A DNA stretch of 64,000 nt from a bacterium BMS3Abin08 (GCA_002897935.1 BDTA01000046.1:17934-81933); one strand, 5' to 3'. Positions 14,234-34,086 are shown, counted from the first letter of the stretch. A program made the numbers and translations. The notes: generated by a model not told the origin, from the letters alone.

Positions 14234-14923
14234 TTGGAAGATAGAACCATGATAGAGAATCTGAAAAAAACAGAGATCTTCAAGGACCTTCAGGATGAAG
14301 AACTTAACGAAATAGCACCCTATATACGGGAGAAGTCCTTCATGAAGCGGGAGATGATATTCTCGGAAGGAGACCCCCCTGATTTCCTCTACATTGTGAA
14401 AGACGGCAAGGTCAAGGTCACCAAACTCTCCCACGAAGGAAAGGAGATTATTCTTGAGATTATCTCCCCCTATGACTTCTTTGGTGGTATTGCCGTCATA
14501 AAGGGGTTCCCCTACCCTGCAAACGCTGTTCCCATGGATGATACAACGGTTTGGATGATCTCGAGAAACAACCTGCTGCTCATCATTGACAGATTCCCAT
14601 CCCTGATGTATTCACTTACAATGAGTCTCGGGGACCGCATGCGGGTCTCCCATGAAACACTTAAAAACATCGCACTTGAAAGGGTCGAGTCGCGGATCGC
14701 ATCACTGCTGCTTAAGCTGTCCGATAAAATGGGAAAGCAAGCCGATGAGGGCCTTCTGATAGATATGAAGCTCACAAAACAGGATATCGCCGATATGGTC
14801 GGGACAACCGTGGAGACAGCAATCAGAACAATGTCGAAGCTGAAAAAATCAGGCTACATATCTGAAAAAGGAGGAAGGATCCTTATCTTGGACAGGGAGG
14901 GCCTTGCATCCCTGGGTTCCTAA
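14234..14923 (+). CDS. Crp/Fnr-family transcriptional regulator
   Basis: 229 aa. cNMP-binding-like beta-barrel and a C-terminal HTH (DIADMVGTTVETAIRTMSKL, with the E..R recognition pattern). There is no N-terminal Cys cluster. The start could instead be 14249. Confidence 0.88.
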   Translation: MEDRTMIENLKKTEIFKDLQDEELNEIAPYIREKSFMKREMIFSEGDPPDFLYIVKDGKVKVTKLSHEGKEIILEIISPYDFFGGIAVIKGFPYPANAVPMDDTTVWMISRNNLLLIIDRFPSLMYSLTMSLGDRMRVSHETLKNIALERVESRIASLLLKLSDKMGKQADEGLLIDMKLTKQDIADMVGTTVETAIRTMSKLKKSGYISEKGGRILILDREGLASLGS

Positions 14924-15677: not shown

Positions 15678-15707
15678 TTGACACTACAGTTTTTTTCCTG
15701 ATACACT
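15678..15707 (+). promoter_or_regulatory. Possible sigma70-type promoter of the chemosensory cluster
   Basis: TTGACA (15678-15683), N18, then TACACT (15702-15707), about 57 nt upstream of the first che-cluster ORF. Confidence 0.3.
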
Positions 15708-15763: not shown

Positions 15764-16861
15764 ATGAGCCTGACAGGTAAATTAGAAGACCTCGGCCTTG
15801 CCGATATCTTTCAGATACTGAGTATCGGAAAGAAAACAGGGTCGCTGTTGGTCCGGGGAAAGGATATCCGTGCAGGGGTGATACTTAAAAGGGGGCTTGT
15901 CGTAAAGGCCGAAGCCAACATCCTCGACGGTGATATCGGAGATGACCTCCTCAAGGCCGGCCTTATCGACGAAGCAGGCTTACAGCTTGCCCGAAACATA
16001 AAGACCGACCTTCCGGAGAAGAGTATCGCCCGGGTGTTGCTGGAACTCGACTCGGTCAAAAAGGAATCAATAGACAGGATTGTCAAGAAGAGGATTGAAC
16101 AGGTGGTGTACCACCTCCTGCTTCTTGAAGAAGGCGACTTCAGTTTTGAACCCGATGAACTGGAGTTAAGACTGCCCGACCTGAAGGACCTGGGCTGGGT
16201 GGTTTCAAAGGGGCTCAGCCCTGAATACCTCCTTATGGAAGGAGCGAGGACCTACGACGAAACACACAAATTCGAAGAGGTCCTCAAAGAGGAACTCTCA
16301 GAGGAAGAAACCGGACCGGAGTGGTTTGAATGCAGCCAGCCCGAGTTCCCGAGGGAGATCTCATCACTGAGGGGATTGACCCAGGAACTCAGGCTTCCCG
16401 AGACCCCTTCGGAGATCTCTCTTTTGATCCTCCGGTTTGCAAGCGATATCTTTCAGAGGGCCGTACTATTTATAATGAATGATGAGATTCTCACAGGTTT
16501 CGGACAATTCGGACTTGATCTCGAGCAGGCTGACGAGAGGGTCCGTGAAATAGCGCTCCCAATCGAAGACAGCCCCTATTTCTCCAGGATAGTCAATGAT
16601 GGCAGGCCATTCAAAGGAGAGCTTGAGAAAGAACCCTTGACGGAGTTATTCATCGGTGAAATTGGCGGGAACTGGCCTGTAGAGGTGGTTTTTTACCCGA
16701 TTATTGCCGAAAATCGTGTTGTTGCGTTACTCTATTGTGACAATCAGCCACCGGGAGAACCGATTGGGGAAACCCCGGGGCTGGAGATCTTCGTAAACCA
16801 GGCGGGCCTTGCCCTTGAGAAGGCGATACTAAAACAAAAATTAGCCGAAAGGGGTGAATAA
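15764..16861 (+). CDS. DUF4388 (PATAN-like) N-terminal domain protein with GAF-like C-terminal domain
   Basis: The N-terminus GKLEDLGLADIFQILSIGKKTGSLLV matches the DUF4388 signature as I remember it. An acidic linker follows. The C-terminal roughly 150 aa look GAF-like. Confidence 0.7.
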   Translation: MSLTGKLEDLGLADIFQILSIGKKTGSLLVRGKDIRAGVILKRGLVVKAEANILDGDIGDDLLKAGLIDEAGLQLARNIKTDLPEKSIARVLLELDSVKKESIDRIVKKRIEQVVYHLLLLEEGDFSFEPDELELRLPDLKDLGWVVSKGLSPEYLLMEGARTYDETHKFEEVLKEELSEEETGPEWFECSQPEFPREISSLRGLTQELRLPETPSEISLLILRFASDIFQRAVLFIMNDEILTGFGQFGLDLEQADERVREIALPIEDSPYFSRIVNDGRPFKGELEKEPLTELFIGEIGGNWPVEVVFYPIIAENRVVALLYCDNQPPGEPIGETPGLEIFVNQAGLALEKAILKQKLAERGE

Positions 16862-16863
16862 CA

Positions 16864-17235
16864 GTGAAAAGGATCCTCATTGTTGAAGATTCCGATTCAA
16901 CAAGATCCATGATAAGGACAATGGTTGAGGATTTGGGGGAGGAATACCTTGTTTTTGACACGGGAAACGGTTTTGAGGCGTTAAAGTTACTTCCCACTGA
17001 AGATTTCAACATGATCATCACGGACATTAACATGCCCGATATCAACGGACTTGAACTGATAAACTTCATAAAGACAAATCCGAGATACAGGGACATCCCC
17101 CTGATCATCGTAAGTACGGAGAGGTCGGAAGAAGACCGCAACAGGGGACTTGCCCTTGGAGCCGACGCCTACATCACAAAACCCTTTAAGCCTGAGGAAC
17201 TCCAGGAAACGGTTAAACAAATAATTCAAAAATGA
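16864..17235 (+). CDS. cheY: CheY-like single-domain response regulator
   Basis: 123 aa, GTG start. VEDSDS, TDINMPDINGL, and ITKPF (conserved Lys). Confidence 0.9.
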   Translation: MKRILIVEDSDSTRSMIRTMVEDLGEEYLVFDTGNGFEALKLLPTEDFNMIITDINMPDINGLELINFIKTNPRYRDIPLIIVSTERSEEDRNRGLALGADAYITKPFKPEELQETVKQIIQK

Positions 17236-19190
17236 GTTCAACAAACAAAGAGTTTATTTCAGAAGCTGAAGACCTCCTTAATGAATCGAGGGAATGCCTC
17301 CTCGAGATACAGGATGGTTTTCCGGAACAATACAACCCTGACACACTCAATGCCTTATTCAGATCCATGCATACCCTGAAGGGGATCTCCGGACTTTACG
17401 GGCATGAAGGACTTAAAGACCTGAGTCACGAACTTGAAGGACTGCTTGACGAACTCCGTCTTGGCAGGATCGACTTGTCGGAGGATCTCATAAACTTCCT
17501 CTTCCATAACATTGACATAGTGAGGAACATGGTATCGGTGGCTTCTGAAGAAAAGGACACCGACGTCTCCTCCTGTATCCGGGAGATTGAGAGGTTCAAA
17601 AATACTGCGGGGATGTCCTCCGGCGAGGCCCCCTTAAGTGAAATAGTCGGGGAGGAAATTCTCAGGGTCTTATCCGAATATGAAGAGCACCGCTTAAGAA
17701 CAAACGTAAAGGATAAAAAGGGCATATTTCTTATCTACACCGTCTTCTCCCTCTCTGAATTCGACAAAGGGCTCTCCAAGCTCACCGGGACCCTGAAGAA
17801 AGACGGGGAACTCATCTCGACCCTCCCCACATCAGAGGGCATCCCGGAGGGCTCCATAGGCTTCAAACTCCTCTTTGCATCTGAAAAAGACCTGCACTAT
17901 CTAAGGGATAAAACCGGTCTGGTAATCGAGGAGATTTATAGCTGCAAACCCTCCACTGTACAGCCTGTCACTCAGGAGGAGACACTCAGAAGCGTCTCCT
18001 CAACCGTCAGGGTGGATATCGAAAAACTCGACAGGATCCTCAACACCATAGGCAAGCTGAACCTTACCAAGGGAGCCATAAGCAGGGTCGAGGAGGAACT
18101 GATCGAGACGTATGGTCACTCACACCTTGTGTTTGATATGCACAGGGTGATACAGAACTTTGACAGGCGACTCAAGGAACTCCAGGATGACGTCCTCCAG
18201 ATAAGGATGGTACCCGTAGGGCAGATATTCTCGAGGCTGGGACAGATTATCAGAAGATACTCAAAGGGATTGAAAAAAACCGTCGAGTTAAAGACCTTTG
18301 GCGAGGATACGGAGATTGACAAGTTCATTGCCGAGGAGATTGCCGACCCCCTGATGCATATTGTGAGAAATGCCCTTGATCACGGGATAGAAACCCCGGA
18401 GGAGCGCGCGTCTAAAGGAAAACCTCAAACCGCTCAGATCAAGCTGAGTGCATTCCCGAAGGGGAATCACGTTATTGTTGAGGTTGAAGACGACGGGCGT
18501 GGAATAGACCCTTCAAGGATAAAAGAGAAAGCAGATGCCCTCGGGCTCGTTTCCAGGCAGGATGAGCTTGATAAAAGCGAGATAATAAACTTCATTTTCC
18601 TGCCAGGCTTCACCACCAGCGAAACCATTACCGATGTCTCAGGCAGGGGCGTAGGCATGGATGTGGTTAAAGAGAAGATATCATCAATCGGTGGTTTCGT
18701 TGATGTTTCCTCGGAGATGGACGTGTTTACCCGCTTCTCACTGACTATACCCATTACCCTTGCAATCATTAAGTCCCTTTTAATACGGTCGGGAAGCCAC
18801 AACTTCGCCCTGCCCCTCACATCCATATCGGAGACCCTGCTTGTGAAGAGGACCGACATCCAGAGCATTGAAGGCAACATGATCTACAACCTCAGGGGAG
18901 AACTTCTCCCCACCATATCCCTTGCAGGGCTGTTTGACTTACGGACTGCGGACTCTGAAGAAAAATACATAGTTGTCGCAGGGTATGGTGAACGCAGAGT
19001 GGGCATTATTGTGGATGCGCTCATCGGGAGCCAGGATATGGTCATAAAATCACTCGGCGACTACTTCAGGAACTTCAAGGGATTTACAGGAGCTGCCGAA
19101 GTAGGCAAAAACGAAGTGATCCTCGTTATCGATGTTGAGGCGATCATGGAGGAAACGCTTAAGAGGTACCGGGGGTTGGCCCATGTATAG
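17232..19190 (+). CDS. cheA: Chemotaxis histidine kinase CheA
   Basis: 652 aa. Hpt domain (FRSMHTLKG), dimerisation domain, HATPase (HIVRNALDHGIE, DDGRGID, GRGVGMD) and a C-terminal CheW-like P5 domain. Confidence 0.95.
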   Translation: MSSTNKEFISEAEDLLNESRECLLEIQDGFPEQYNPDTLNALFRSMHTLKGISGLYGHEGLKDLSHELEGLLDELRLGRIDLSEDLINFLFHNIDIVRNMVSVASEEKDTDVSSCIREIERFKNTAGMSSGEAPLSEIVGEEILRVLSEYEEHRLRTNVKDKKGIFLIYTVFSLSEFDKGLSKLTGTLKKDGELISTLPTSEGIPEGSIGFKLLFASEKDLHYLRDKTGLVIEEIYSCKPSTVQPVTQEETLRSVSSTVRVDIEKLDRILNTIGKLNLTKGAISRVEEELIETYGHSHLVFDMHRVIQNFDRRLKELQDDVLQIRMVPVGQIFSRLGQIIRRYSKGLKKTVELKTFGEDTEIDKFIAEEIADPLMHIVRNALDHGIETPEERASKGKPQTAQIKLSAFPKGNHVIVEVEDDGRGIDPSRIKEKADALGLVSRQDELDKSEIINFIFLPGFTTSETITDVSGRGVGMDVVKEKISSIGGFVDVSSEMDVFTRFSLTIPITLAIIKSLLIRSGSHNFALPLTSISETLLVKRTDIQSIEGNMIYNLRGELLPTISLAGLFDLRTADSEEKYIVVAGYGERRVGIIVDALIGSQDMVIKSLGDYFRNFKGFTGAAEVGKNEVILVIDVEAIMEETLKRYRGLAHV

Positions 19191-19995
19191 GGACTTTTTT
19201 TCACTCAAGGACAGACCCTTCAGCAAGACCCCCGACCCGAGGTTCCTCTTTATGAGCAAGGCTCATGAAGAGGCGCTCGCAAGACTCCAGTATGCTGTTG
19301 AGGAAAGAGAGATCGTTCTCCTGACGGGTGAGATCGGCTGTGGCAAGACCACACTTACAAGGGCCCTGATGGATTGCCTTGATGAGAGCTACAGGGTTAT
19401 CCTTATACTTAATCCCCGGCTCACTGCGAACCAGTTCCTCAGGTCCATTGCAAAAAGGATGGAGATAACCATCCCCTCCGGTTACAAGGATGACCTCCTT
19501 GAAGCGATTTACCAGAAGGTCTACAACGATTATGAAAAGGGGATAACGCCCGTAATCATCATCGATGAGGCCCAGCTTATTCCAAAAAAGGATGCCTTTG
19601 AAGAAATCCGTCTTCTTACCAACTTTCAACTTGACGATACAAATCTTATAAGCCTCATACTCGTTGCTCAGCCCGATATCCGGAGGAGGCTGAGACACAG
19701 GGCATATGCCCCTTTAAGGCAGAGAATCGGACTCTTCTATCACATAGGGGCACTTGATGAGAAGGAAACCACAGACTACGTCGGACATAGATTAAAGACC
19801 TCGGGAAGGGGATCACGGCTCTTTACGGAAAGGGCTCTGAAGGTAATATTCAGATATTCCGGCGGAATACCCCGGGTTATCAACAGTATCGCCACTTCTG
19901 CGCTCCTTGATGCCTTTTCAAAGGACCAGGAGATCATCGATGAAGAGAACATTATTGATGCGGTAAGGGAGCTTGGATATAATGGATATAGCTAA
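19183..19995 (+). CDS. ExeA/GspA/MshM-like AAA+ ATPase (AAA_22 type)
   Basis: I place the start at ATG 19183, which overlaps the cheA stop by 8 nt. FSLKDRPFSKTPDPRFLFMSKAHEEALARLQY is the ExeA/MshM N-terminal signature. Walker A GEIGCGKTT, Walker B IIIDEAQ. Confidence 0.8.
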   Translation: MYRDFFSLKDRPFSKTPDPRFLFMSKAHEEALARLQYAVEEREIVLLTGEIGCGKTTLTRALMDCLDESYRVILILNPRLTANQFLRSIAKRMEITIPSGYKDDLLEAIYQKVYNDYEKGITPVIIIDEAQLIPKKDAFEEIRLLTNFQLDDTNLISLILVAQPDIRRRLRHRAYAPLRQRIGLFYHIGALDEKETTDYVGHRLKTSGRGSRLFTERALKVIFRYSGGIPRVINSIATSALLDAFSKDQEIIDEENIIDAVRELGYNGYS

Positions 19996-20695
19996 AGTCA
20001 GAAAAAAGGCAAGGAAGAAAAAAGAGACGAAAAACAAAGGCGGCAAGGCATCAAGGAAAAATGAGAGCGCCGTCAAGTCTCCTGAAACCGGACTTGCCGG
20101 GGCAGAAGAGATACGCGATGAGTCAACAGGGACCGGGAGACCTGAAGAACAAGCGGACCAGGAGCCACGGAAAGGCATCCCGGCTTCCGTGGAGTTGCTC
20201 TCTTTTCAGCTTGGGTCGGAGTGCTACGCCTTTCACATGAACGATGTTCAGGAGATAATCAATCTCTATAACCTGACCCCTGTACCCACGGGACCTGAAC
20301 ACCTGTGCGGCTTAATATCCTTAAGGGGAAGGATAATCCCCGTGCTGGACCTGACAAAGCTCCTTAAGCCGGACAGTTCAACCCTGGATAACGGCACCCT
20401 GCGGAAATTATCGAAAAACAGATTGCCAACCAGGAGAAAGGAGAAAGTAATCGTTGCAAAGGGGGGAAGAGGTCCGATCGGGGTCTTAACCGACCAGGTG
20501 GTTGATGTTATAAGGGTATCGGAAGACTCGCTCAACGAGCCACCCACTCATCTCACTGAATCAGAGGTAAGGTTTATTGAGAGTGTAAGCATCCATAGCG
20601 GCAGATTCATAACCGTACTAAAAAGCGATGCAGCGCTTTTTGTATTTGAAGACAATTTTGAAGACAATAAAGAAGAGGAGCATCCGCATTCTTGA
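19973..20695 (+). CDS. cheW: CheW-domain coupling protein with about 70-aa charged N-terminal extension
   Basis: CheW fold (LLSFQLGSECYAFHMNDVQEI...GLISLRGRIIPVLDL). Lys-rich then acidic N-terminus. Overlaps the ATPase gene by 23 nt. Confidence 0.88.
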   Translation: MDIMDIAKVRKKARKKKETKNKGGKASRKNESAVKSPETGLAGAEEIRDESTGTGRPEEQADQEPRKGIPASVELLSFQLGSECYAFHMNDVQEIINLYNLTPVPTGPEHLCGLISLRGRIIPVLDLTKLLKPDSSTLDNGTLRKLSKNRLPTRRKEKVIVAKGGRGPIGVLTDQVVDVIRVSEDSLNEPPTHLTESEVRFIESVSIHSGRFITVLKSDAALFVFEDNFEDNKEEEHPHS

Positions 20696-20966: not shown

Positions 20967-23819
20967 ATGGGAACACTTGAAAAGAAGATTCTGGGGGCAG
21001 TAGTGCTTGTAATTGTTACAGGGTCTGTTTTTGCCGTCACCATGGTTTATTTTATGCAGAAAAAGAGCATATATGAAACCGCGCAGGAGAAGATGTTTGA
21101 AACTGCAAACGTTATCAGCAAAAGCCTGAAAAGAACAATGCTCGAAGGGAAGTCGGACATTACCAGGGCAATGTCCAACGATTTCAAGACCCTGAAAGGA
21201 ATTGAGAATATAACCATACTGAACCATGAGGGAAGAGAGGCCTTCAACAAGACTGCTCCTTCAAAGGAATCAGAGATTGTTAAAAGATTTGCTGCTGATC
21301 TGTCACCTTTTTCGATTATAAAAAACAACCGGATGTTGATTTACAGACCCCTCGAGAACTCTCCTGCGTGCCAGAAATGTCACTTGGTAAAAAGTCCTTT
21401 TCTCGGTGTTGTAAAGATCTCCATGTCACTCCGTGACGAGCAGAGCAAGATCGTAAGGATGGCTATGTTCAATATCCTGGCAACAATATCAGCGATTTTC
21501 ATACTCTCCTTTATAATCTGGATACTCATGAGGAAGATTATTATCAATCCCATCAGGAAGATAGAAGGAGCAGCGACTCTCCTTGCACAGGGGGACCTGA
21601 CCTTCAGAACCGACATAGCTGCCGATGATGAGATCGGCCAGGCAAGTTCCGCCCTTCAGGGCGCCCTGCAGTCAATATCATCGATACTTCAGAGGGTCAA
21701 GGATATCACCAGACGCGTCTCAAAGATTTCAACGGAGGTGGAAACTGAATCGAGAGACCTCGTTGAGACAACAAAAACCGAGACAGAGGCGATAGAGAAC
21801 ATATCAAGTTCCATTGAAGAACTCAATGCCTCGATCTCTGAGATAAGTGAAAGCACAGACGGTCTTGCAGTGTCATCTGAAGAGATGGCATCTGCAATCG
21901 AGGAGATGTCTGCCAGTATATTTCAGATTGCCCAGAACAGTAATGAGCTCTTTGAATCGGTTGAATCCAGTTCCTCCTCCATTGAAGAACTGACATCCTC
22001 AATCAAAGAGGTTGCTTCAAGTGCGGACGGTCTCCTGAATTCGACCGACGATACACTCTCAACCATTGAGGAGATTACCGCTTCAATAAGAGAAGTCGAG
22101 GTAAATACCAAGGAGTCCGCCAGGCTGAGTGAAAGGGTTATGACCGAGGCGTCAACATACGGTAAGGATGCCATTGAAAAGACGATAGAGGGAATGGAAA
22201 GGATAAAGATCTCAGTCGAGACCACCGCGGAGTACATAAAGAGACTGGGAGGCAGATCTGAAGAAATTGGAAAGATCCTCACGGTAATAGATGAAATCAC
22301 AGACCAGACCACCCTCCTCGCTCTTAATGCCGCCATACTTGCAGCGCAGGCCGGTGAACACGGCAAGGGCTTCTCCGTGGTAGCCGATGAGATCAAGGAT
22401 CTCGCTGAACGCACATCCTTCTCCACCCAGGAGATCTCAACGCTGATCCATACCGTCCAGAAAGAGGTCGCTGACGCAGTGTATGCAATGAACCTCGGAT
22501 TTGAGGCGGTTACCGGGGGGCTCGGTCTCTCAAAAAACGCATCCGGTGCGCTGGAGAAAATAATTGAAAGCGCCAGGCTTTCTTCCGATATGTCGACTGC
22601 CATAGAACACTCCACATCGGAACAATCCGAGGCTGCAAGGTTCGTTGCTGAATCAATGGAGAAGGTAAGGAACATGGTAAGCCAGATTGCAAAGGCAACT
22701 GCAGAGCAGTCAAGGGGCATGTCCCTCCTTATGAATGCAGCAGAACGCATAAGGAGTATTGCAACACAGGTCAAGACTGCAACAGAGGAACAGTCTCAAC
22801 AGAGCAAGCTCATACGCCAGAGCACGGAGGTTGTATCCGAAAAGAGCCAGCACATAGCAAGCGCACTCAACGAACAGAAAATGGGATCAGAGCAGATCAG
22901 GCATTCAATAAGGAACATCTCTGATATTCCTGCAAAGAACAGGAATATCTCCTTCAAGGTAAATAACGCCCTCAGGACACTCGTGAAGGATACCGAGCTT
23001 ATTGTGACAGAGATGGAGAAGTTCAGCTTCACACCTGTCTCTCATAGTGAAAAGACAACAAGGTTCGGCGTCATTCCCCTCGAGAGCCCCGCCGAGATGC
23101 ACCGGAGATTCAGCCCCCTCTCCGATTATCTCGGCAGAAAACTGGGTAAAAAGGTCGAGCTCAAGGTTGGTGTGGACTTCCAGGGCGCTATCCAGGATAT
23201 AGGCAACGGCGTGACCCAGCTATGCTTCATGACCCCGTCAACCTATATCAAGGCCAGAAGGGATTACAACGTAAGGGCGCTGGTAAAGGCGCTGAATAAC
23301 GGAAAGCCCTACCATCACTCCGTTATCATAGCACGCTCCGGCAGTTCCATCGCAGGTCTCAAAGACCTCAAGGGCAAGTCCTTCTGTTTCGGCGATCCTG
23401 ACTCAACCTCATCTCACATCGTACCGAGGTTTATGCTTCTTCAGGAAGGGGTGGACATCTCGGACCTGCTCTTTTACAACTACCTTGGTCACCATGACGA
23501 TGTCGCGGAGGCGGTCCTTTCAGGTGAATATGATGCAGGTGCCGTCATGGAGTTGACCGCCGAAAAATACAAGGAGCGGGGCCTGAAGTATATCAAGTTC
23601 TCAGAGGAGATTCCCGAGTTCAACGTATGTGTATCAAGGGATCTGCCTGAAAACGAGGTTCAGATGATTAAATCGGCCTTCCTGTCCCTTAAGGACACCG
23701 ACACTGAAGGGCTCTCCATCCTTAAATCAATAAATGAACATTACACAGGCTTTATTGAGACATCCGACGAAGACTATCAAAAGATCCGTGAAATGATGTC
23801 ACAAATACAACTGATCTGA
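20967..23819 (+). CDS. Methyl-accepting chemotaxis protein: 2 TM, CxxCH periplasmic domain, HAMP, signalling domain of about 64 heptads, C-terminal PhnD-like substrate-binding domain
   Basis: 950 aa, AAGGAGG RBS. TM helices at about residues 8-30 and 166-188. CQKCH at 21369-21383. Signalling tip [27 protein letters not shown]. The last roughly 250 aa ([11 protein letters not shown]...[16 protein letters not shown]...) look like a phosphonate/phosphate ABC binding protein. Confidence 0.88.
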
Positions 23820-23954
23820 GGAGGCAACCAATGGTAAAAGGAATTTCACTTTTAGTTTCATATGCTGCATGTCGGTTCATTGACTTTATCAGACATCCCG
23901 CGGGGCTGGAAATAATCAGGATGAATAATGCCCTGTCATCCGGTGGGAACTGAG

Positions 23955-25958
23955 ATGACTATCGAAAAGAGTCTCTCAACAAGGTTTATATACAGGATCC
24001 TGATAATTCTCTTCGTTGGACAGTCCCTGATCTGGGCATGGTCCTTCTACCGTGAAAAGACGACCCTCGAAGACTCCCTCAACAACGTGCTATCCCTGTC
24101 GGGTGGTATAATAAGCAACATAGCTGCAACCGCCCTTGTCAGCTCAGATCATACATATCTTGAACGGATAATCGATGATATCTTGAAGAATGAAGACATA
24201 ATCTCCGTAGAGATTCTGGATGCGGACGGGAAGAGACTCATCAAAAAGAGTCACGAAAGCACCGGGACTGCCTACAAAATATCCGAATTTCCCATTCGGT
24301 CCGGCACCGACGTAATAGGCAAGGTCAGGATAAGATACTCCGTTAGAAGGATAAAGGCAAACCTCGCCGGTCATCTCATCACCTCCATGATGCTCCAGAT
24401 GGTTGTCTTCATAGGTCTCATTTTTCTTATTGCCCTGTTCTTTAAACGTGATATCGGTGGACGCATAAGGGAGATGAGCAGGGTTATCGAGAAGATCACC
24501 CTTGGTGACCTGTCCCAAAGCATCGGCATCGAGGATAAAACGGAAATCGGAACAATAGCCCGTGGTATCGACTTCCTTATAACGAGACTGAAGGGTTACA
24601 TAAGAAAATTAAAGGATATCTCAAGGAATGTATCGGCGGCCATGAGCCAACTCAACCTGACCTTCAAGAACGTGACCAACAGTGTAAACAACCAGCAAAA
24701 ATCCCTTGAAGATGTCTCACTGTCCCTCAGAAATGCATCCAAGTCACAACTACGGATACATAAAAACACGGACACACTCCTTTCCCTTTCAAACGACAAT
24801 GTCTCTGCTCTCCTGGAATTCAAGGCTACCTCGGAAGAGATAGCCGCTGCTGCCGAAAGTCTTCAGCGCAATATTAACGACTCCTACTCGACCACTACCG
24901 AGCTTACCCAGTCATCACATGAAGTCGCCTCTCTTACAACGGAGGTATCCTCGGCTATGCAGGAGGCATCTGCCTCTGCAGATGAGATAAATGCGACGGT
25001 AAAGGAAATCGAACGCATCTCTCGGGAGTCGGCGGAACTGAGTTTCCTTACAACGGAAACCGTATCCGGGAAGGGGATGCTCTCGATTGTTGAAGCAGTT
25101 GAAAGGATGGAACAGATCGAGGCATCCGTAACTGAACTCAAGCAATCGATTGAGAGACTGGGAGGAATGTCCAAGGACATCGAGAAGATCCTCTCCGTCA
25201 TCAGGGATATTACGGAACAGACGGGGCTTTTGAGTCTGAACGCTCAAATTCTTGCGGTTCAGGCCGGGGAATACGGAAAGAGCTTTTCGATAGTGGCATC
25301 CGAGATGAAGACGCTGTCCGACAGGACCGCGTCCTCGACCCGGGAGATAGCTGGAATCGTTTCAACGCTCAAGAGAGAAATCCAGACGGTGGTAAATGGA
25401 ACCAATGAGACCTTTACCATGGTAGAGAAGGGAAGCGAAGCGGTAATGAATACAGGAGAGGCGCTTCGCGAGATCCTGCACTCCTCACAACGTTCGAGCG
25501 AGATCGCACAGAGTATAAAACGCGCATCGATTGAGCAGACGCGGGGACTTGAGTTGATTGTGAAGGCTATTGAACATATCAAAAAAATGATTTTTAAGGT
25601 AAGCAGGGCCACCGAGGAACAGGAAAAAGGCATTTCGTACCTTCTTGAGAGCGTCTCATCCATCAAGGAATCCATGGAGATCACAAAGAAGGCCACGGAC
25701 GAACAGGCGAAGAGCACAAAGTTTATCACCGACAATATAGAATTAGCAAATGAAAAAACCGCTGAAATAACAACGGCATCCTCTGAACAACAGAAGATAA
25801 ATGAGCACATAACGAGTCTCCTGCAGTCTGTAATGAATCTGGGTAAGAATACCGCAAGGGATGTCAAAGAGGTCTCGCTGTTCATATCATCGCTCCATGC
25901 GGAGGTGGAAGAACTCAGGAAGGAAATGGATCACTTCAGAACCGAAACAGGGCAATGA
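23955..25958 (+). CDS. Methyl-accepting chemotaxis protein (2 TM, small periplasmic domain, HAMP, signalling domain of about 64 heptads)
   Basis: The ORF opens at 23928, and ATG 23955 (MTIEKS) is the likelier start. Tip LLSLNAQILAVQAGEYGKSFSIVASEM. The stop overlaps the next cheW start. Confidence 0.9.
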   Translation: MTIEKSLSTRFIYRILIILFVGQSLIWAWSFYREKTTLEDSLNNVLSLSGGIISNIAATALVSSDHTYLERIIDDILKNEDIISVEILDADGKRLIKKSHESTGTAYKISEFPIRSGTDVIGKVRIRYSVRRIKANLAGHLITSMMLQMVVFIGLIFLIALFFKRDIGGRIREMSRVIEKITLGDLSQSIGIEDKTEIGTIARGIDFLITRLKGYIRKLKDISRNVSAAMSQLNLTFKNVTNSVNNQQKSLEDVSLSLRNASKSQLRIHKNTDTLLSLSNDNVSALLEFKATSEEIAAAAESLQRNINDSYSTTTELTQSSHEVASLTTEVSSAMQEASASADEINATVKEIERISRESAELSFLTTETVSGKGMLSIVEAVERMEQIEASVTELKQSIERLGGMSKDIEKILSVIRDITEQTGLLSLNAQILAVQAGEYGKSFSIVASEMKTLSDRTASSTREIAGIVSTLKREIQTVVNGTNETFTMVEKGSEAVMNTGEALREILHSSQRSSEIAQSIKRASIEQTRGLELIVKAIEHIKKMIFKVSRATEEQEKGISYLLESVSSIKESMEITKKATDEQAKSTKFITDNIELANEKTAEITTASSEQQKINEHITSLLQSVMNLGKNTARDVKEVSLFISSLHAEVEELRKEMDHFRTETGQ

Positions 25959-26500
25959 AATATCTTGTTTTCTTTATAAAGGACGATTACTTCGGGATTG
26001 ATATCTTCAAGCTTGCGGAGGTCCTGAATCCTGTAAAACTCCACGCGGTTCCCGATGTACCCGAGTTTATTTCCGGGGTAATAAACCACAGGGGTGAGGT
26101 CATCCCCGTTGTTTCCATGCGAAGGCGTTTCGGCATCACGGAAGAGGCGGGGAAGGCGCGGATCGTAATACTGGGATTCGGTAAAGGAGAGAAAATCGGC
26201 CTCCTGGTTGACGGTGTCACGGAGATAGCGGAGATACCCCGGGAACGGATATCAAAACCGTCCAGCCTGTTCAAGGGATTCAGGCCGGAATTCATTGAGG
26301 GAATAGCAGAGATGGGGAATGAACGGATTATTATCATCATGGATATAGAGAGGGTGTTCTCAACCGAGGAAAAGGTGCTCCTTAAGGAATCGAAGAGGAA
26401 GGCTGAAGGTGGAAAATCCCCCACTAAAAAAACCGCAAAAAAGGGAGGCGGCCAAAAAAGACTGCTCAGGAGCGCCGGGGTAAATGTAAAAGATGAATAA
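25955..26500 (+). CDS. cheW: CheW coupling protein with Lys-rich C-terminal tail
   Basis: 181 aa. CheW fold (YLVFFIKDDYFGIDI...INHRGEVIPVV). Tail KRKAEGGKSPTKKTAKKGGGQKR. Confidence 0.9.
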   Translation: MKYLVFFIKDDYFGIDIFKLAEVLNPVKLHAVPDVPEFISGVINHRGEVIPVVSMRRRFGITEEAGKARIVILGFGKGEKIGLLVDGVTEIAEIPRERISKPSSLFKGFRPEFIEGIAEMGNERIIIIMDIERVFSTEEKVLLKESKRKAEGGKSPTKKTAKKGGGQKRLLRSAGVNVKDE

Positions 26501-28451
26501 CGAAAAGCTCAACAGGGATATAGAACTGAAAAGGTCCAGGATCTTCTCTCAGAGAGGACGATCCGAAGGACTGTCGGTAATAATCGACTCCTTCAAGGAT
26601 GAAAGCTGGAGGGTAAGGAAAACCGCGCTTGACGTACTTATGGATAATTACCCCGCAGAAGGCTATATCCGGGATCTAATTAACCTCCTCTACCTGGAAG
26701 ACAACGCCGGCGCGCGTAATACCGCCATCGAGGCATTAACAAGACTGGGGAAGAAGGGACTCCCCAACCTGATAAAGGCATTCGATACGGACAACCGGGA
26801 TGTCAGGAAGTTTATAATTGATGTCATCGGCATAATCGGCGGCACGGAAGTAACACATCTTCTGCTTAAGGCTATAAGGGACGAAGACGAAAACGTCCGG
26901 GCCTCCGCGGTTGAATATCTCGGGAAGTTGAGGGAACCCTCTGTAACTGATGCACTGATAAATATAATTGAAGAGGAAGACGTCTGGACTGCCTATCCGG
27001 CGGTAAACGCACTCGGGATGATAGGCGACAGAAAGGTTATTCCCTTCCTTATTAAATCACTCGGGAACAGGCCGCTGACCGAACCCGCCCTCCGTTCACT
27101 TTCAGCGTTTTCCGAGCCCGACACCCTGCAATACGTAATCCCTCTCCTTCGTGATCAGAGACGTTCGATACAGGAAGAGACGCTCAGAACCATCGAGAGA
27201 TACTATGAAAACGGTGTTTCCGAAGAATATATCTCTGAGCGGCTCGTGGAACTCGTCGGTGCCGATGCATTTGAAATCTGCCTGAAATACACAAGCCATA
27301 ATAATCCGGAAGTAAAAAAGGCTGCCATAATCACCCTGGGGCTGCTACATGACCACCGTGCCGTGATGCAACTTCTCGATCTTGCCGAAGATGAAAACCT
27401 CAGGGATATTGTAAAGAGGGCGCTTGTCTTCATGGGCAAGAAAGACCCCGGCCTGTTTCCTGAACTCCTTCATACTGTAACGCCTGAAAAGAGAAGACTC
27501 ATTGTTGACTCAATGGCTGACATAGGCGCACCCGGTTACATCGATATCTTTACGGGGCTCCTGCATGATCGTGATGGGCATGTGATAGTTCATGCCGTAC
27601 GCGGACTCGGACGAATCGGTGACAAAAAGGCCGTCGACAACCTGCTTTCGATCCTGGGACATCCTTATCCCGATGTTCAGGAAGCGCTGATCGGTTCCTT
27701 AACAAAGCTGAAGGACCGGATTGACCCCTCTCACCTCATGGACGGACTCCGTTCTGCAAATGAGGTGATACGGAGAAACTCTGTTACACTCCTTGGTGAA
27801 TTAAGATCTGAATATGCATTACAGGAGCTGAGCCTCACACTTGGAGACCCTTCAGTTGGTGTCAGGACGGCAGCCGTTACGGCCATTTCACGTATCAGAT
27901 GGAAGGACACCCTGAAGTATATAAAGATGGCCCTGAGCGATGAGTCACCAGAGGTAAGAGAGGTGGCAACGGGGTGCCTTGCCATCTTTGACAACGATGA
28001 AGCCCTTGAAGCACTGAGAGTAATGGCAAAGGATTCAGAAGGGTCCGTACGTGCTATGGCCGCACGGACTCTTTCTTCCATCAGGAATGAAGGGGCTGTT
28101 GAGACCCTTATAAATCTGCTTCATGACCGGAACGGCTTTGTCGTCACCCAGGCTATCGAATCATTGTCGGCATTTAACCACCCGTCTGCAAGGAAGGAGT
28201 TGCTCGGTTTACTCAACTTCCCCGACAGGGAAATTAAGAGGACCGCCATCATGGCGCTTTCTTCCTATTCCGGGGTGGAGGATGCAGTAAAACCCTTCCT
28301 GTTCAGCGAAGACTGGGCAACAAGGCTTGCGGCGGTCCAGGCGCTCTCAAGGATGGGGACCGAAAAGGCAAGGGAATGTCTCGAAGGGATTTACGATATT
28401 GAAGACGATCCCTCCGTGAAGAGGGAAATCGAGGACGGATTAGGTGTTTGA
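26493..28451 (+). CDS. HEAT-repeat (PBS-lyase-type) protein
   Basis: 652 aa. Repeated units of about 31 aa (D..VR..A...LG.....A...L) run along the whole length. Overlaps cheW (8 nt) and cheR (8 nt). Confidence 0.85.
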   Translation: MNNEKLNRDIELKRSRIFSQRGRSEGLSVIIDSFKDESWRVRKTALDVLMDNYPAEGYIRDLINLLYLEDNAGARNTAIEALTRLGKKGLPNLIKAFDTDNRDVRKFIIDVIGIIGGTEVTHLLLKAIRDEDENVRASAVEYLGKLREPSVTDALINIIEEEDVWTAYPAVNALGMIGDRKVIPFLIKSLGNRPLTEPALRSLSAFSEPDTLQYVIPLLRDQRRSIQEETLRTIERYYENGVSEEYISERLVELVGADAFEICLKYTSHNNPEVKKAAIITLGLLHDHRAVMQLLDLAEDENLRDIVKRALVFMGKKDPGLFPELLHTVTPEKRRLIVDSMADIGAPGYIDIFTGLLHDRDGHVIVHAVRGLGRIGDKKAVDNLLSILGHPYPDVQEALIGSLTKLKDRIDPSHLMDGLRSANEVIRRNSVTLLGELRSEYALQELSLTLGDPSVGVRTAAVTAISRIRWKDTLKYIKMALSDESPEVREVATGCLAIFDNDEALEALRVMAKDSEGSVRAMAARTLSSIRNEGAVETLINLLHDRNGFVVTQAIESLSAFNHPSARKELLGLLNFPDREIKRTAIMALSSYSGVEDAVKPFLFSEDWATRLAAVQALSRMGTEKARECLEGIYDIEDDPSVKREIEDGLGV

Positions 28452-29334
28452 AGGGGAAGAAACCATCAAGTTAAATGAAGATGCCTTTAGACTTCTCCGT
28501 GAACTCATCAGGGACTTCTCCGGCATCTATTTTGATAACAAATCGAGATCCCTCCTTGAGAGAAGACTTAACGGCCGTCTCAGGTCACATAATATAAAAA
28601 CCTTCCGGGACTATTACAGATACCTGCTGTATGACCGCAACAGGGACACCGAACTGTCCGAGATAATGGATATACTTACCGTCAATGAGACCTATTTTTT
28701 CAGGGAAAAAAACCAGCTCCGTGCCTTCTCGGAAGAGATACTGCCTGAGTTGAAAGAGAGGAATAGAAGAAAAAGGAAAATCAGGATCCTTTCGGCAGGA
28801 TGTTCTTCCGGCGAAGAGCCCTATACTATAGCAATGCTTATACTTGAGAGCAACCTCCTCTGGAACTGGGAAATCGACATAATAGGCTGTGACATAAACA
28901 GGGGGGTCCTGCAGACCGCAAGGAACGCTGTTTACAGGCAGAACTCTTTCCGCTGTACCGATGAATACTACCGGAAGAAATACTTTGTGACCGATAACGG
29001 CAACTCATACAGGATAAAGGACAACCTCAAGGGTCTTGTCCACTTCGGATATCTCAATCTCCTTGATGCCGGGAAGGTCCTCTTTCTCGGCACCATGGAT
29101 GTCGTCTTCTGCAGAAATGTCCTTATCTATTTCGATGGACCTTCGAGGAAAAGAGTCGTCGAAAGTTTTTATAATTTACTCCCGGAAGACGGATACCTTC
29201 TTCTGGGACATGCTGAATCACTCATAAATATCTCCACAGCCTTTTCATTAAAACAGCTTCAGCATGATCTTGTATATACCAAACCCGTTGCAACAGAAGG
29301 GGAGCCCCATAAGTTATACGGGCCTCCAACCTGA
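28444..29334 (+). CDS. cheR: Chemotaxis protein methyltransferase CheR
   Basis: 296 aa, GTG start. ETYFFRE and the SAM-binding ILSAGCSSGEEPYTIAM motif. Confidence 0.93.
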   Translation: MFEGEETIKLNEDAFRLLRELIRDFSGIYFDNKSRSLLERRLNGRLRSHNIKTFRDYYRYLLYDRNRDTELSEIMDILTVNETYFFREKNQLRAFSEEILPELKERNRRKRKIRILSAGCSSGEEPYTIAMLILESNLLWNWEIDIIGCDINRGVLQTARNAVYRQNSFRCTDEYYRKKYFVTDNGNSYRIKDNLKGLVHFGYLNLLDAGKVLFLGTMDVVFCRNVLIYFDGPSRKRVVESFYNLLPEDGYLLLGHAESLINISTAFSLKQLQHDLVYTKPVATEGEPHKLYGPPT

Positions 29335-29348
29335 GGAGTATTACAGTT

Positions 29349-30410
29349 ATGGATAAAAAGACAAAGGTTCTTGTTGTGGATGACTCCGCTTTCAGCAGAC
29401 AGGCAATAAAAAAGATGCTCTCTAAAGACCCGGCGATCGATGTTATTGCTGTTGCCGTTGACGGTATAGATGCCATTTCAAAAACACTCAGATACAGACC
29501 CGATATAATAACCCTTGATATCGAGATGCCCCACATGGATGGTTTCAGCTTTCTGAGATGGCTTACAAAGGAATGTCCCACGCCCGTTATTATGGTCAGT
29601 TCCCTCTCCAACAGCAGGACGGTTTTCAGGACACTGGAGATGGGTGCCGTCGACTTTATTGCAAAACCCACAAGACGTGCATCACCTGAGATTGAAAAGA
29701 TCGAGCAGGATTTGCTCAATAAGATCCACAGTATAAACCTCAACTCCCTCAAGAAGCTCAACAGGAACCTTGACAACCTCTACAGGAGAAAATCCCTGAA
29801 GACCCTGGATGCCCGTGAAACAACCGATCCGGGAGTAATTGCCATAGGCGCCTCCACAGGCGGGCCTCAGGCCCTTCAGCTAATCCTGACTTCCCTGCCC
29901 GAGGGGTTCCCACTGCCTGTTGTAATCAGCCAGCATATGCCGGGGGAATTCACGGGGGCGCTTGCAGCCAGACTTGACCAGCTCTCTTATATCAATGTAA
30001 AGGAAGCCGTGGAAGGAGATACCCTTGAGCCTTCAACTGCACTGATATGCCCCGGAGGACATCATATGCAGTTGAAAAAGAGCAGAAACAGGGTTCTTGT
30101 CAAGTTACTCGAGGCAGATGAATCCGACAGGTACGTACCTTCAGTCGACATCATGATGAAATCAGCAGCTGATATTTTTAAAAACAGGACACTTGGTGTT
30201 ATACTAACCGGAATGGGAAACGACGGAAAAGAGGGCATGAAGGAGATTTACGGAAAAGATGGCTTTACGGTTGCCGAGTCCGAGAAGACAGCGGTGGTTT
30301 TCGGTATGCCGCAGGAAGTGATCAAGGCGGGTTTTGCCAAGCGCATAATGCCGCTTAACAGCATACCTGCAGAGCTTAAGAGACGCGTTTTAAAAGAAAA
30401 CATTAAATGA
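29349..30410 (+). CDS. cheB: Protein-glutamate methylesterase CheB (receiver + esterase)
   Basis: 353 aa. VLVVDDS...TLDIEMPHMDG receiver domain. IGASTGGPQAL and TGMGNDG esterase motifs. Confidence 0.94.
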   Translation: MDKKTKVLVVDDSAFSRQAIKKMLSKDPAIDVIAVAVDGIDAISKTLRYRPDIITLDIEMPHMDGFSFLRWLTKECPTPVIMVSSLSNSRTVFRTLEMGAVDFIAKPTRRASPEIEKIEQDLLNKIHSINLNSLKKLNRNLDNLYRRKSLKTLDARETTDPGVIAIGASTGGPQALQLILTSLPEGFPLPVVISQHMPGEFTGALAARLDQLSYINVKEAVEGDTLEPSTALICPGGHHMQLKKSRNRVLVKLLEADESDRYVPSVDIMMKSAADIFKNRTLGVILTGMGNDGKEGMKEIYGKDGFTVAESEKTAVVFGMPQEVIKAGFAKRIMPLNSIPAELKRRVLKENIK

Positions 30411-30416
30411 AAAGCC

Positions 30417-31238: not shown

Positions 31239-31248
31239 AGGAGGCTCT

Positions 31249-31617
31249 ATGCCCAGCATCCTCGTTGTAGAAGATTCACCTACCATGAGACAACTGATAA
31301 GCTTTGCCATGCGGCGGATACCCAAGTCCAGTGTGATAGAGGCAACCGACGGTGTTGATGCCCTGAAAAAACTCTCAACAGAGAAGGTCGATATCATTCT
31401 GGCGGACATAAACATGCCTGTCATGGATGGACTGAAACTTATAAGTCTCGTACGGGGAAACCCCTCTTACAAGGACATACCTATTATCATTATCACCACT
31501 GAAGGAGCTGAAGAGGACAGAAAAAAGGCTTTGGCTATCGGCGCAAACGACTATCTTGCAAAACCGATACAGACACAGCAACTCGTAAAACTCGTGAAGA
31601 AGTATCTTCCCGATTGA
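31249..31617 (+). CDS. cheY: CheY-like single-domain response regulator (paralog of 16864..17235)
   Basis: 122 aa. VVEDSPT, ADINMPVMDGL, LAKP. Confidence 0.9.
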   Translation: MPSILVVEDSPTMRQLISFAMRRIPKSSVIEATDGVDALKKLSTEKVDIILADINMPVMDGLKLISLVRGNPSYKDIPIIIITTEGAEEDRKKALAIGANDYLAKPIQTQQLVKLVKKYLPD

Positions 31618-32699: not shown

Positions 32700-32726
32700 C
32701 TTGCCGCCTAAATGACCGCTGCCGTC

Positions 32727-33992: not shown

Positions 33993-34086
33993 TCCTTGTA
34001 ATGAAGTACCTGCGGCAAAAACCGCGGGTTGACCTAAACAAAATATCTGCTTGTTACTTCAATGAATTCCCATCAACATTCAATCA

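Follow-up and report, generated by a model that had tools for sequence, protein, structure and literature searches.

A 64,000-nucleotide stretch of DNA from the bacterium BMS3Abin08 (GCA_002897935.1, BDTA01000046.1:17934-81933), referred to here as the window, carries a chemosensory gene cluster in which a gene for a soluble AAA+ ATPase of the ExeA/GspA/MshM type is lodged between cheA and a gene for a long CheW protein. Few bacterial machines are understood as well as chemosensory arrays and, CheA aside, the only ATPases that we know to act on them are ParA-type positioning proteins. Comparison across genomes indicates that the ATPase, so far uncharacterised, is conserved in one type of chemosensory cluster, and it is probably an unrecognised component of the machine that this cluster encodes.

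The ATPase gene and its overlaps with cheA and cheW

The gene, its overlaps with both neighbours and the motifs of its product are as follows, positions being those of the window.

19183-19995, plus strand: ATPase gene, 270 codons and a stop; soluble ExeA-family AAA+ ATPase of the che-linked clade
19183-19190, plus strand: overlap of the ATPase start codon with the cheA stop codon, 8 nt, ATGTATAG
19195-19293, plus strand: N-terminal family signature F..L...PF.KTPDPRFL..S..H.EALARL.Y, residues 5-37, FFSLKDRPFSKTPDPRFLFMSKAHEEALARLQY
19327-19353, plus strand: Walker A GEIGCGKTT, residues 49-57; G49, G52, G54, K55 and T56 invariant
19555-19575, plus strand: Walker B IIIDEAQ, residues 125-131; D128, E129 and A130 invariant
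19603-19650, plus strand: block EEIRLLTNFQLDDTNL, residues 141-156; predicted helix and beta-hairpin just before the sensor-1 strand (AlphaFold2, AF2)
19669-19671, plus strand: Q163, putative sensor 1 at the end of strand beta-4 (residues 157-162 in the AF2 model); invariant
19723-19725, plus strand: R181, arginine-finger candidate by analogy with the AAA+ fold; Q180 and R181 invariant
19861-19875, plus strand: GGIPR, candidate sensor-2 motif in the lid domain, residues 227-231; G228, P230 and R231 invariant in the che clade
19982-19995, plus strand: overlap of the ATPase 3' end with the cheW start (ATG 19982), 14 nt

Invariance refers here and below to 69 sequences of the che-linked clade. 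The original prediction, made from the sequence alone, had the ATG at 19183 overlapping the cheA stop, and this is confirmed: cheA (17232-19190) ends with TAG at 19188-19190, so that 8 nt (ATGTATAG) are common to both genes. Although a second in-frame ATG lies upstream at 19132, the start on alignment evidence is 19183, because the homologs and the model TIGR03015 align from residue 1 of that start. An 8-nt overlap of the form ATGTWTRA is shared by 27 of 47 related loci, and in 10 others the two genes are 0-3 nt apart. At the other end, the predicted overlap of 23 nt with cheW had to be revised, as it presupposes a TTG start at 19973, whereas the ATG at 19982 gives 14 nt. The latter is almost certainly the true start, judging from a Shine-Dalgarno-like AAGGGAG at 19965-19971, with the ATG 10 nt further on, and from the peptide MDIAKVRKKARKKK, which is the N-terminus kept in orthologous CheWs in dozens of loci. 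Reading frames that overlap on both sides are suggestive of co-expression of the ATPase with cheA and cheW; the "stoichiometric co-production" with CheA and CheW that had been proposed could be argued from the overlapping codons only.

Family, motifs and predicted fold of the ATPase

By its sequence, the window protein is an ATPase module of the ExeA/GspA/MshM type within AAA_22, in agreement with its initial identification. Residues 41-170 match PF13401 (AAA_22; Pfam, E=1e-23). The best NCBIfam model by far is TIGR03015, built for the XrtA/PEP-CTERM system-associated ATPase (E=1.4e-69, 234.5 bits), to which residues 1-264 align over positions 1-266 of 269; despite this full-length alignment, the curated cutoff of 324.5 bits is not reached. 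Homologs are named in databases "type II secretory pathway predicted ATPase ExeA" or "general secretion pathway protein A", and more than 7,000 of them are found at E<=1e-10. Of 1.84 billion representatives of clusters at 50% identity, 28,590 matched the ATPase at E<=1e-3, and 6,550 of these reached E<=1e-30. Identity to the window ATPase was 58% or more in only two and fell to 47% in the next.

The N-terminal signature and the Walker A and Walker B motifs reported earlier are all present in the translation. Within the signature, P12, F13, K15, T16, P17, P19, L22, H28, E30, A31, A33 and R34 are invariant, and FFSLKDRPFSKTPDPRFLFMSKAHEEALARLQY is common to a GspB-linked GspA homolog of Vibrio and to a homolog from an exopolysaccharide (EPS) locus. 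Residues G228 and R231 of the candidate sensor-2 motif are likewise invariant in GspA and EPS relatives. The block EEIRLLTNFQLDDTNL is almost invariant (E141, R143, L144, L145, N147, Q149, D151 and N154 are fixed), and its FQLDD.NL part is confined to the che clade when compared with GspA and EPS forms. In AAA+ proteins the element just before the sensor-1 strand usually touches the substrate, and the block at 141-156 is a candidate element for contact with a partner or substrate.

No transmembrane (TM) segment was detected in the ATPase, the highest 19-residue Kyte-Doolittle mean being 1.10, and no peptidoglycan-binding (PG_binding_1) or SPOR domain was matched in Pfam, so that the earlier description of a protein of about 270 aa with neither a TM nor a peptidoglycan-binding part holds. 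The isoelectric point (pI) is neutral, at 6.9. An AF2 model based on 69 homologs (pLDDT 90.7, pTM 0.83) consists of an alpha-beta-alpha AAA+ base and a helical lid. Its best Foldseek matches in PDB are archaeal Orc1/Cdc6, MuB and TnsC (TMq 0.66-0.72, E 1e-10 to 1e-8, identity 15-21%), followed by RuvB, RuvBL and proteasomal Rpt subunits. A sequence search of PDB with the ATPase gave P-loop-level matches only, for example midasin and VirB11, and no solved structure of the ExeA family. Because Walker A, D128/E129, Q163, R181 and GGIPR are invariant in the 69 sequences and the fold is that of AAA+ proteins, we infer that the protein is apparently an active and oligomerising ATPase and not a degenerate scaffold.

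Linkage to che genes across genomes

GTDB representatives, one genome for each species, were scanned and provided 51 loci, onto which the proteins of the window cluster were mapped by tblastn. In all loci at 50% identity or more (48/48), cheA is directly upstream of the ATPase gene. These 48 che-linked loci belong to Nitrospirota/Thermodesulfovibrionia, Geobacteraceae, unclassified "Deltaproteobacteria" and metagenome-assembled genomes of Acidobacteriota, and their usual gene order is PATAN-CheY-CheA-ATPase-CheW-(MCPs)-CheW-HEAT-CheR-CheB-GAF-CheY, where MCP stands for methyl-accepting chemotaxis protein. Three loci at or below 40% identity are without che linkage, namely a GspA-GspB pair in Vibrio, an AAA_22-SPOR gene in a Wzy/glycosyltransferase locus and a neighbour of GspC of a type II secretion system (T2SS). 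The linkage reaches out to representatives at 43-47% identity, as seen in the neighbourhoods of more distant cluster representatives:

P0254, 47% identity: CheA, ATPase, CheW
P0256, 47% identity: ATPase, CheW, HEAT, CheR
P0259, 45% identity: an MCP fragment only upstream
P0257, 44% identity: PatA_N, REC, CheA, ATPase, CheW, CheW, MCP
P0268, 44% identity: rearranged cluster, the ATPase flanked by two CheWs and far from CheA
P0279, 43% identity: full che cluster
P0280, 43% identity: REC, CheA, ATPase
P0313, 43% identity: tandem ATPase pair, not che-linked
P0269, 42% identity: HD_5 gene after the ATPase, not che-linked
P0386, 38% identity: minor-pilin-like genes, ATPase, HD-GYP, TPR, Wza, Wzc, Wzy, not che-linked

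The expectation that orthologs lie next to che genes is therefore borne out by the 48 close loci and by these more distant representatives. In a neighbour-joining tree, which carries no support values, the che-linked ATPases of 18 genome loci and the ortholog of Geobacter sulfurreducens fall into one clade, surrounded by a ladder of stand-alone forms of 264-285 aa, with GspA-like forms of 400-1,400 aa outside. The che-linked ATPases are thus best regarded as a distinct clade that arose among soluble family members of EPS and pilus loci. The clade is defined by soluble proteins of 264-287 aa, encoded after cheA and/or before a long CheW in a PATAN/HEAT cluster, and the window ATPase has all these features. 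Linkage to cheA and/or to a tether-bearing cheW is obligatory in it. At one locus (L062) some 6 kb of che genes lie between CheA and the ATPase gene, yet the latter directly precedes a long CheW with the N-terminal motif described below. Identities within Nitrospirota are higher for the ATPase (57-76%) than for CheA (45-61%), the long CheW (about 30-41%) or the HEAT protein (31-49%), which marks the ATPase as being under strong purifying selection.

Some further arrangements of the family were observed. Two tandem ExeA-like modules occur in single proteins of 575-687 aa (P0258, P0260, P0261 and P0265), and two adjacent ExeA-like ATPase genes, for 264 and 273 aa, lie at L145 4898-6519; these hint at hetero-oligomeric forms of the ATPase. 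The nearest non-che short form was found at L146 3742-12795, in the order minor-pilin-like genes (N_methyl, PilX_N), ATPase (38%), HD-GYP-type HD_5, TPR, Wza, Wzc and Wzy, and an HD_5 gene is next to the ATPase in P0269 (42%) as well. The pairing of the ATPase with HD-GYP proteins in EPS loci may point to control of this family by cyclic di-GMP (c-di-GMP). Where a cluster is made up of PATAN-CheY-CheA-ATPase only, the ATPase gene faces convergent genes (L016 10846-13435, minus strand; L023 as well), whose products are a protein of 402 aa with a Ras/Arf-like GTPase domain and a diguanylate cyclase of the GAF-GGDEF type. The arrangement is reminiscent of the PATAN-MglA neighbourhood (PMC4316618) and of EsnD, the GGDEF output in Geobacter.

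The long CheW and its N-terminal peptide

The CheW encoded after the ATPase is unusually long (200-365 aa across loci). It is composed of a basic N-terminal peptide, an acidic or proline-rich linker of low complexity and the CheW domain.

19982-20023, plus strand: N-terminal peptide of the long CheW, MDIAKVRKKARKKK, a kept motif and candidate tether or activator for the ATPase

In the window the protein begins with MDIAKIRKKAK; residues 1-27 carry a net charge of +11, and the acidic linker spans residues 28-70. MDIAKIRKKAK is the variant of Nitrospirota, with MNLAEIRKKAR and MDIAEIRRKAQ in Geobacteraceae including G. sulfurreducens; further examples are MDILKARKKAKK, VDILKLRKLQKK and MDIAKLRKKAKE. 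The motif M-[DN]-[IL]-A-[EK]-I-R-K-K-A is present in 62 distinct sequences and occurs once in the window. The peptide is kept across clusters whose ATPases share only about 40% identity, whereas the linker sequence is not conserved and the entire N-terminal extension varies between 65 and 187 residues (median 109).

Co-occurrence of peptide and ATPase was assessed in 80 metagenome loci retrieved by the CheW-domain pattern G[VLI][ILT]SLRG[EIR]II, a query with no part of the ATPase. The pattern was taken from a 5-sequence CheW alignment; a 10-sequence alignment had no stretch conserved enough. Among these loci, which are not phylogenetically independent, the motif is accompanied by an ATPase gene directly upstream in 51, and neither is present in 17. 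The ATPase is found without a recognisable motif in a single locus (L098, apparently frameshifted), and the motif without the ATPase in none. Three loci have the motif with less than 400 nt of upstream sequence, and in the remaining eight the open reading frame (ORF) of CheW runs off the contig and is uninformative.

Four PATAN-CheY-CheA clusters without the ATPase (L096 4405-5444, L105 4336-5438, L128 2905-4111 and L134 4896-5920) have the order CheA-CheW-CheW, in which both CheWs are short proteins and the N-termini are short. The first CheW starts with MLDIRKNSQI or MLEIREISQI, and the second CheW of L128 starts with MTGIAKIQKKQV, in which the otherwise invariant Arg of the motif is replaced by Gln. 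The length of CheA shows no clear difference between clusters that have the ATPase (652-693 aa) and those that do not (674-676 aa).

The remainder of the cluster and its surroundings

All other genes of the window cluster lie on the same strand as the ATPase.

15764-16861, plus strand: PATAN (DUF4388/PatA_N) protein, first gene of the cluster (Pfam); same position in related loci
16864-17235, plus strand: CheY-like receiver, CheY1 (Pfam)
17232-19190, plus strand: cheA, 652 aa, with Hpt, dimerisation, HATPase_c and P5/CheW-like domains
19982-20695, plus strand: long CheW, 237 aa, ortholog of Geobacter EsnB (GSU2220); CheW domain 5.4e-27
20967-25958, plus strand: two transmembrane MCPs, MCP1 of 950 aa, with a C-terminal PhnD-like domain, and MCP2 of 676 aa (Pfam)
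25955-26500, plus strand: second, short CheW, 181 aa (Pfam)
26493-28451, plus strand: HEAT-repeat protein, 652 aa; kept in related loci
28444-31617, plus strand: CheR, CheB, coiled-coil-GAF protein and CheY2, end of the cluster; order kept in related loci

MCP1 (20967-23819, plus strand) has N-terminal TM segments at 4-31 and 161-196, a HAMP domain, a signalling domain at 395-569 and a C-terminal PhnD-like phosphonate/periplasmic-binding-protein domain at 700-937 (E=5e-65). Because no TM segment follows the signalling domain, this usually "periplasmic" solute-binding fold is predicted to be cytoplasmic, at the tip-distal end of the receptor. Full-length matches to MCP1 recur in related Nitrospirota loci at 45-70% identity. 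The coiled-coil-GAF protein (273 aa) and the single-domain CheY2 (30417-31617, plus strand) are the best-conserved proteins of the cluster across phyla, with identities from Nitrospirota to Geobacteraceae of 53-88% and 58-86%, respectively, and they may be the real output module.

A gene for a Crp/Fnr-family regulator (14234-14923, plus strand) precedes the che cluster. The best sigma-70-like site on the plus strand, TTGACA-18-TACACT with an extended TG at 15678-15707, is located 57 nt ahead of the PATAN gene and likely marks the start of the operon; the scan for promoters and terminators gave nothing above chance, nor does the number of sigma-70-like sites in the region exceed it. Directly downstream of the cluster and convergent with it (31686-35238, minus strand) are rlmN and the genes for S-adenosylhomocysteine hydrolase and S-adenosylmethionine (SAM) synthetase. 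Genes of the SAM cycle thus adjoin a cluster encoding the SAM-dependent methyltransferase CheR, which may be coincidental. Among the 50 larger ORFs scanned in the window, no gene for T2SS, type IV pili (T4P), a secretin, a PEP-CTERM system, a transposase or an integrase was found, and none for an EPS system lies near the ATPase; the glycosyltransferase and dTDP-sugar genes present at 59-63 kb are on the opposite strand, at a distance of about 40 kb.

The ortholog in Geobacter sulfurreducens

The ortholog in G. sulfurreducens PCA is GSU2221 (AAR35597.1, "ATPase, putative", elsewhere "ExeA family protein"; cluster representative P0156), a protein of 267 aa with 52% identity to the window ATPase over 263 aa (E=3e-101). 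It is encoded between esnC (GSU2222, cheA) and esnB (GSU2220, cheW). In complete G. sulfurreducens genomes the order is PatA_N-REC, CheY, CheA, ATPase, CheW (252 aa), REC, CheW, Zn-ribbon-REC, HEAT, CheR, CheB, GAF, CheY; this is the GSU2224-GSU2212 region, and the cheY40H gene names that Chan et al. give in their supplement fit this order. From gene content and order, the window cluster is of the type known in Geobacter as the "beta group", che5 or Esn cluster, and is related to Che7 of Myxococcus xanthus.

In a transposon-sequencing (Tn-Seq) screen of G. sulfurreducens on electrodes, log2 values of -2.8, -2.1 and -2.4 were reported for GSU2222, GSU2221 and GSU2220, respectively, and deletion of esnB or esnC abolished electrode colonisation while Fe(III) oxide reduction was retained; GSU2221 was neither deleted nor included in the EsnABCD model (PMC5585712). 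The supplements of Chan et al. hold no per-gene Tn-Seq values for the remaining genes of the cluster. The output of the Esn pathway is the GGDEF response regulator EsnD (PMC5585712), and later work has tied esnB to this diguanylate cyclase and to levels of cyclic GMP-AMP (cGAMP). Tran et al. (PMC2577667) described the cluster as "beta group, cluster 5", occurring across delta-proteobacteria including M. xanthus, for which they did not name the cluster; they mentioned unpublished preliminary evidence that it controls the extracellular matrix, and did not mention the ATPase. In the literature searched, there was no paper on an ExeA-like ATPase in a che cluster, and GSU2221 appeared only as a line in a Tn-Seq table. 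The earlier statement that no characterised example exists accordingly stands as far as function is concerned, and has to be corrected in that GSU2221 is on record with a Tn-Seq phenotype in the published Esn/che5 cluster.

Proposed role of the ATPase and alternative explanations

Our preferred interpretation, which we advance tentatively and judge to fall a little short of probable, is that the ATPase is associated with the array, acting in its assembly, positioning or turnover, and is tethered to it by the long CheW. In its ATP state the ATPase would oligomerise, like its structural relatives Orc1/Cdc6, MuB and TnsC. The long CheW would connect it to the receptor-CheA-CheW lattice: the CheW domain would plug into the array, and the basic peptide MDIAKIRKKAK, carried on a disordered linker of 65-190 residues, would bind and perhaps stimulate the ATPase. 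Binding and hydrolysis of ATP could then drive assembly, placement or turnover of the array, and the ATPase and long CheW together would be a functional analogue of Vibrio ParC-ParP built from an unrelated ATPase family.

This model is favoured because of the ParC-ParP-like architecture, the ATP switches of the MuB/TnsC type and the precedent of ExeA-type ATPases, which are assembly factors for large envelope-associated oligomers. A partnership of ATPase and CheW is supported by the 51/17/1 co-occurrence, by the conservation of the peptide among clusters with ATPases only about 40% identical, by the adjacency of the two genes in L062 and by the short CheW7 of Che7, a system without the ATPase. 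The AAA+ fold with its invariant catalytic motifs, the linkage to cheA and the electrode Tn-Seq scores of GSU2222, GSU2221 and GSU2220 also count in favour of the model.

Several points nevertheless weigh against the tethered-ATPase model. The 51/17/1 counts lack phylogenetic independence, as noted above. A degenerate peptide (MLDIRKNSQI; MTGIAKIQKKQV) is retained on CheWs of L096, L105 and L128, which have no ATPase, and the peptide may therefore have another partner; a strict reading of the peptide as the dock of the ATPase is weakened by this. In L101 a long CheW follows CheA without an ATPase. Conversely, 8 of the 44 genome loci with downstream sequence consist of PATAN-CheY-CheA-ATPase with no CheW after it, so that the ATPase can persist with CheA alone. 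The Tn-Seq score of GSU2221 may be due to a polar effect on esnB. Finally, a DNA matrix of the MuB/TnsC kind, with use of the nucleoid as by PpfA, is kept as a sub-variant only, since the neutral pI of 6.9 speaks against it.

An alternative that we consider unlikely is that the ATPase relays the signal to an envelope machine encoded elsewhere (T4P, a T2SS-like secretin or an EPS exporter), possibly together with the PATAN protein and in keeping with the ancestral role of ExeA/MshM/PEP-CTERM-type ATPases. Its closest non-che relatives do adjoin GspB or GspC or lie in EPS loci with minor-pilin-like genes, and of the NCBIfam models that of the PEP-CTERM/EPS-associated ATPase matches best. The Geobacter cluster has been reported, as unpublished preliminary data, to control the extracellular matrix (PMC2577667), pil and polysaccharide genes score in the same electrode Tn-Seq screen (PMC5585712), and a preprint reports binding of PATAN-REC regulators to the T4P motor in Synechocystis. 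However, neither in the window nor in any che-linked locus with mapped or annotated flanks does the ATPase adjoin a gene for T2SS, T4P, a secretin or EPS, which weakens the link to a secretion or pilus-like output suggested in the original prediction, and the TM and periplasmic anchoring domains of ExeA/GspA are absent from the window ATPase. The Geobacter pathway, moreover, already has an output in EsnD, and the ancestral role is itself unclear, since Vibrio cholerae lacking mshM is still piliated.

Somewhat less plausible again is a role as kinase modulator or nucleotide switch, in which the ATPase would bind to CheA itself and not to the array lattice, and would gate autophosphorylation or receptor coupling by its ATP/ADP state, in a variant serving as an extra input (energy status, for example) or as a device for reset or adaptation. 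CheA is indeed the most constant neighbour (all 48 close loci, with codons usually overlapping or abutting), reduced clusters keep PATAN-CheY-CheA-ATPase only, and AAA+ proteins of the Orc/Cdc6, MuB and TnsC type are nucleotide-dependent recruit/release switches, the fold likeness being computed here and the mechanism being textbook knowledge. Against this, the ATPase of L062 is about 6 kb from CheA and still beside the long CheW, and gain of the ATPase tracks the change in CheW (full motif, long linker) and no clear change in the length of CheA.

That the ATPase is no member of the system at all, being a TniB/IstB-like remnant of a mobile element, a defence NTPase or a hitch-hiker, can be rejected as highly improbable: AAA_22 does include TniB-like proteins and there are weak P-loop-level matches to IstB (21.8 bits against a cutoff of 200) and to defence NTPases (at most 26 bits; P-loop level only in PADLOC), but TniB (PF05621) is not among the 15 Pfam families matched at E<=0.001, the 50 larger ORFs scanned across the window have no transposase or integrase domain, the alignment to the ExeA-type model TIGR03015 is full-length, the position in che clusters has been kept, in proteins as distant as about 43% identity, by more than one phylum, purifying selection on the gene is strong and its catalytic motifs are invariant, and 48 independent assemblies exclude an assembly artefact as the cause of the che linkage. 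The transposition relic that had been named as a possible refutation of the original prediction is thereby set aside.

Novelty and implications

The family of the ATPase, this type of cluster and the gene in Geobacter had all been recorded before, and the clade of GSU2221 is annotated but functionally undescribed. Two observations were not previously described in the literature searched: a soluble ExeA-type AAA+ ATPase as a conserved core of this cluster type across phyla, and the co-variation of its presence with the peptide-tethered CheW. The further proposition that the ATPase and the tethered CheW form an AAA+ machine which assembles, positions or recycles arrays, and which evolved independently of ParC-ParP and PpfA-TlpT, is one that we regard as doubtful. 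In such a machine the invariant arginine R7 of the CheW peptide would be the residue for docking or for activation of the ATPase, and the EsnABCD model, like the homologous clusters of Nitrospirota and Acidobacteriota, would then miss one core component.

An AAA+ ATPase between cheA and cheW suggests an energy-dependent step that is missing from current models of "alternative function" chemosensory systems, in hosts that include Geobacter, Thermodesulfovibrionia, Acidobacteriota and many uncultured lineages. Since GSU2221 belongs to the Esn pathway (electrode colonisation via c-di-GMP) of the tractable G. sulfurreducens, the question can be put directly to experiment. The result would provide a first handle on the soluble ATPase module of the ExeA/GspA/MshM family (about 28,600 clusters at 50% identity), whose mechanism is still unclear even in the T2SS and mannose-sensitive haemagglutinin (MSHA) pilus systems.

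Comparison with known systems

The closest likeness is to the Geobacter cluster, with the same order of PatA_N-REC, CheY, CheA, ATPase and long CheW (beginning with MDIAEIRRKAQ) and, further on, HEAT, CheR, CheB, GAF and CheY. It differs from the window cluster in having no MCP genes, extra receiver proteins and a PATAN protein with a receiver domain; in Geobacter cheA and the ATPase gene are 0-3 nt apart, whereas the window has the 8-nt overlap.

ExeA/GspA is the accessory ATPase of the T2SS and acts with ExeB/GspB in assembly of the secretin. The window protein shares its cytoplasmic ATPase module (the signature PF..P....L..S..H.EA, Walker A and B, and the putative sensor-2 GxPR), and a GspA-like protein of Vibrio mytili, whose gene is followed by one for T2SSB/GspB, is 37% identical to it with the same N-terminal signature. 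ExeA/GspA proper, however, has a TM helix after the ATPase domain, where the window protein stops at residue 270, and a periplasmic peptidoglycan-binding domain (an EPS-type relative in L051 has SPOR); GspA and EPS homologs run about 130-230 aa beyond the end of the window ATPase. Its partner is GspB in a T2SS locus, while the window ATPase has cheA and cheW as neighbours, and the long GspA-like forms fall into a separate clade in the tree without support values. GspA of Escherichia coli K-12 was rejected as a reference, BLASTP with the window ATPase being not significant (best E 0.46). In the E. coli protein (gene at L064 3930-5399, minus strand) the family signature is missing from the N-terminus and Walker B is degenerate (IIIENAH), and the protein is probably catalytically inactive.

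MshM and the ATPases of TIGR03015 resemble the window protein in being soluble, stand-alone and about 265-285 aa long, and the nearest non-che short forms (38-43% identity) are from EPS export or minor-pilin loci or from tandem pairs. TIGR03015 proteins proper belong to EPS/PEP-CTERM loci (Wza/Wzc/Wzy, XrtA), whereas the window ATPase is below the cutoff and in a chemosensory context. The gene for MshM lies in the msh operon between mshL (secretin) and mshN (TPR), that of the window between cheA and cheW, and the FQLDD.NL block is confined to the che clade. In V. cholerae, MSHA pili are still made and normal when mshM is deleted.

Orc1/Cdc6, MuB and TnsC, the closest solved folds, share the two-subdomain AAA+ module, whose lid in the window ATPase carries the sensor-2 candidate. 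They form oligomers with ATP, bring in a partner protein and are turned off by peptides of that partner; in MuB and TnsC such peptides trigger hydrolysis. The window ATPase differs from them in having no winged-helix or other DNA-binding domain, a neutral pI and no transposition or replication context.

ATPase systems that position chemosensory arrays are ParC-ParP in Vibrio and Pseudomonas and PpfA-TlpT in Rhodobacter. The window system would be like ParC-ParP in its way of working only: an ATPase gene in a che operon is followed by that of a CheW-domain adaptor, which starts with a short stretch for interaction, continues with a long disordered linker and ends in a CheW-like domain that integrates into the array. 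In ParP these are a ParC-binding domain, a proline-rich linker and a CheW-like AIF domain that inserts into the array (PMC5706961). ParC and PpfA are of the ParA/MinD type with a deviant Walker A (KGGxxK[ST]), whereas the window ATPase is an AAA+ protein with GEIGCGKT, a lid domain and an arginine-finger candidate; there is no homology, and the likeness is architectural only.

The Che7 system of M. xanthus has the same backbone of CheY, CheA, CheW, MCP, HEAT protein, CheR and CheB (cheY7 MXAN_6965, cheA7 MXAN_6964, cheW7 MXAN_6963, mcp7 MXAN_6962, cheR7 MXAN_6960, cheB7 MXAN_6959), and because of this gene order Che7 may be equated with the M. xanthus member of the beta group. The gene at MXAN_6961, which we take to be cpc7 and to encode a HEAT-repeat protein, has the same position as the HEAT gene of the window. 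Che7 differs precisely where the window carries its ATPase: no gene lies between cheA7 and cheW7, and CheW7 is a short protein of 148 aa, with its CheW domain at 4-141 and without the N-terminal tether.

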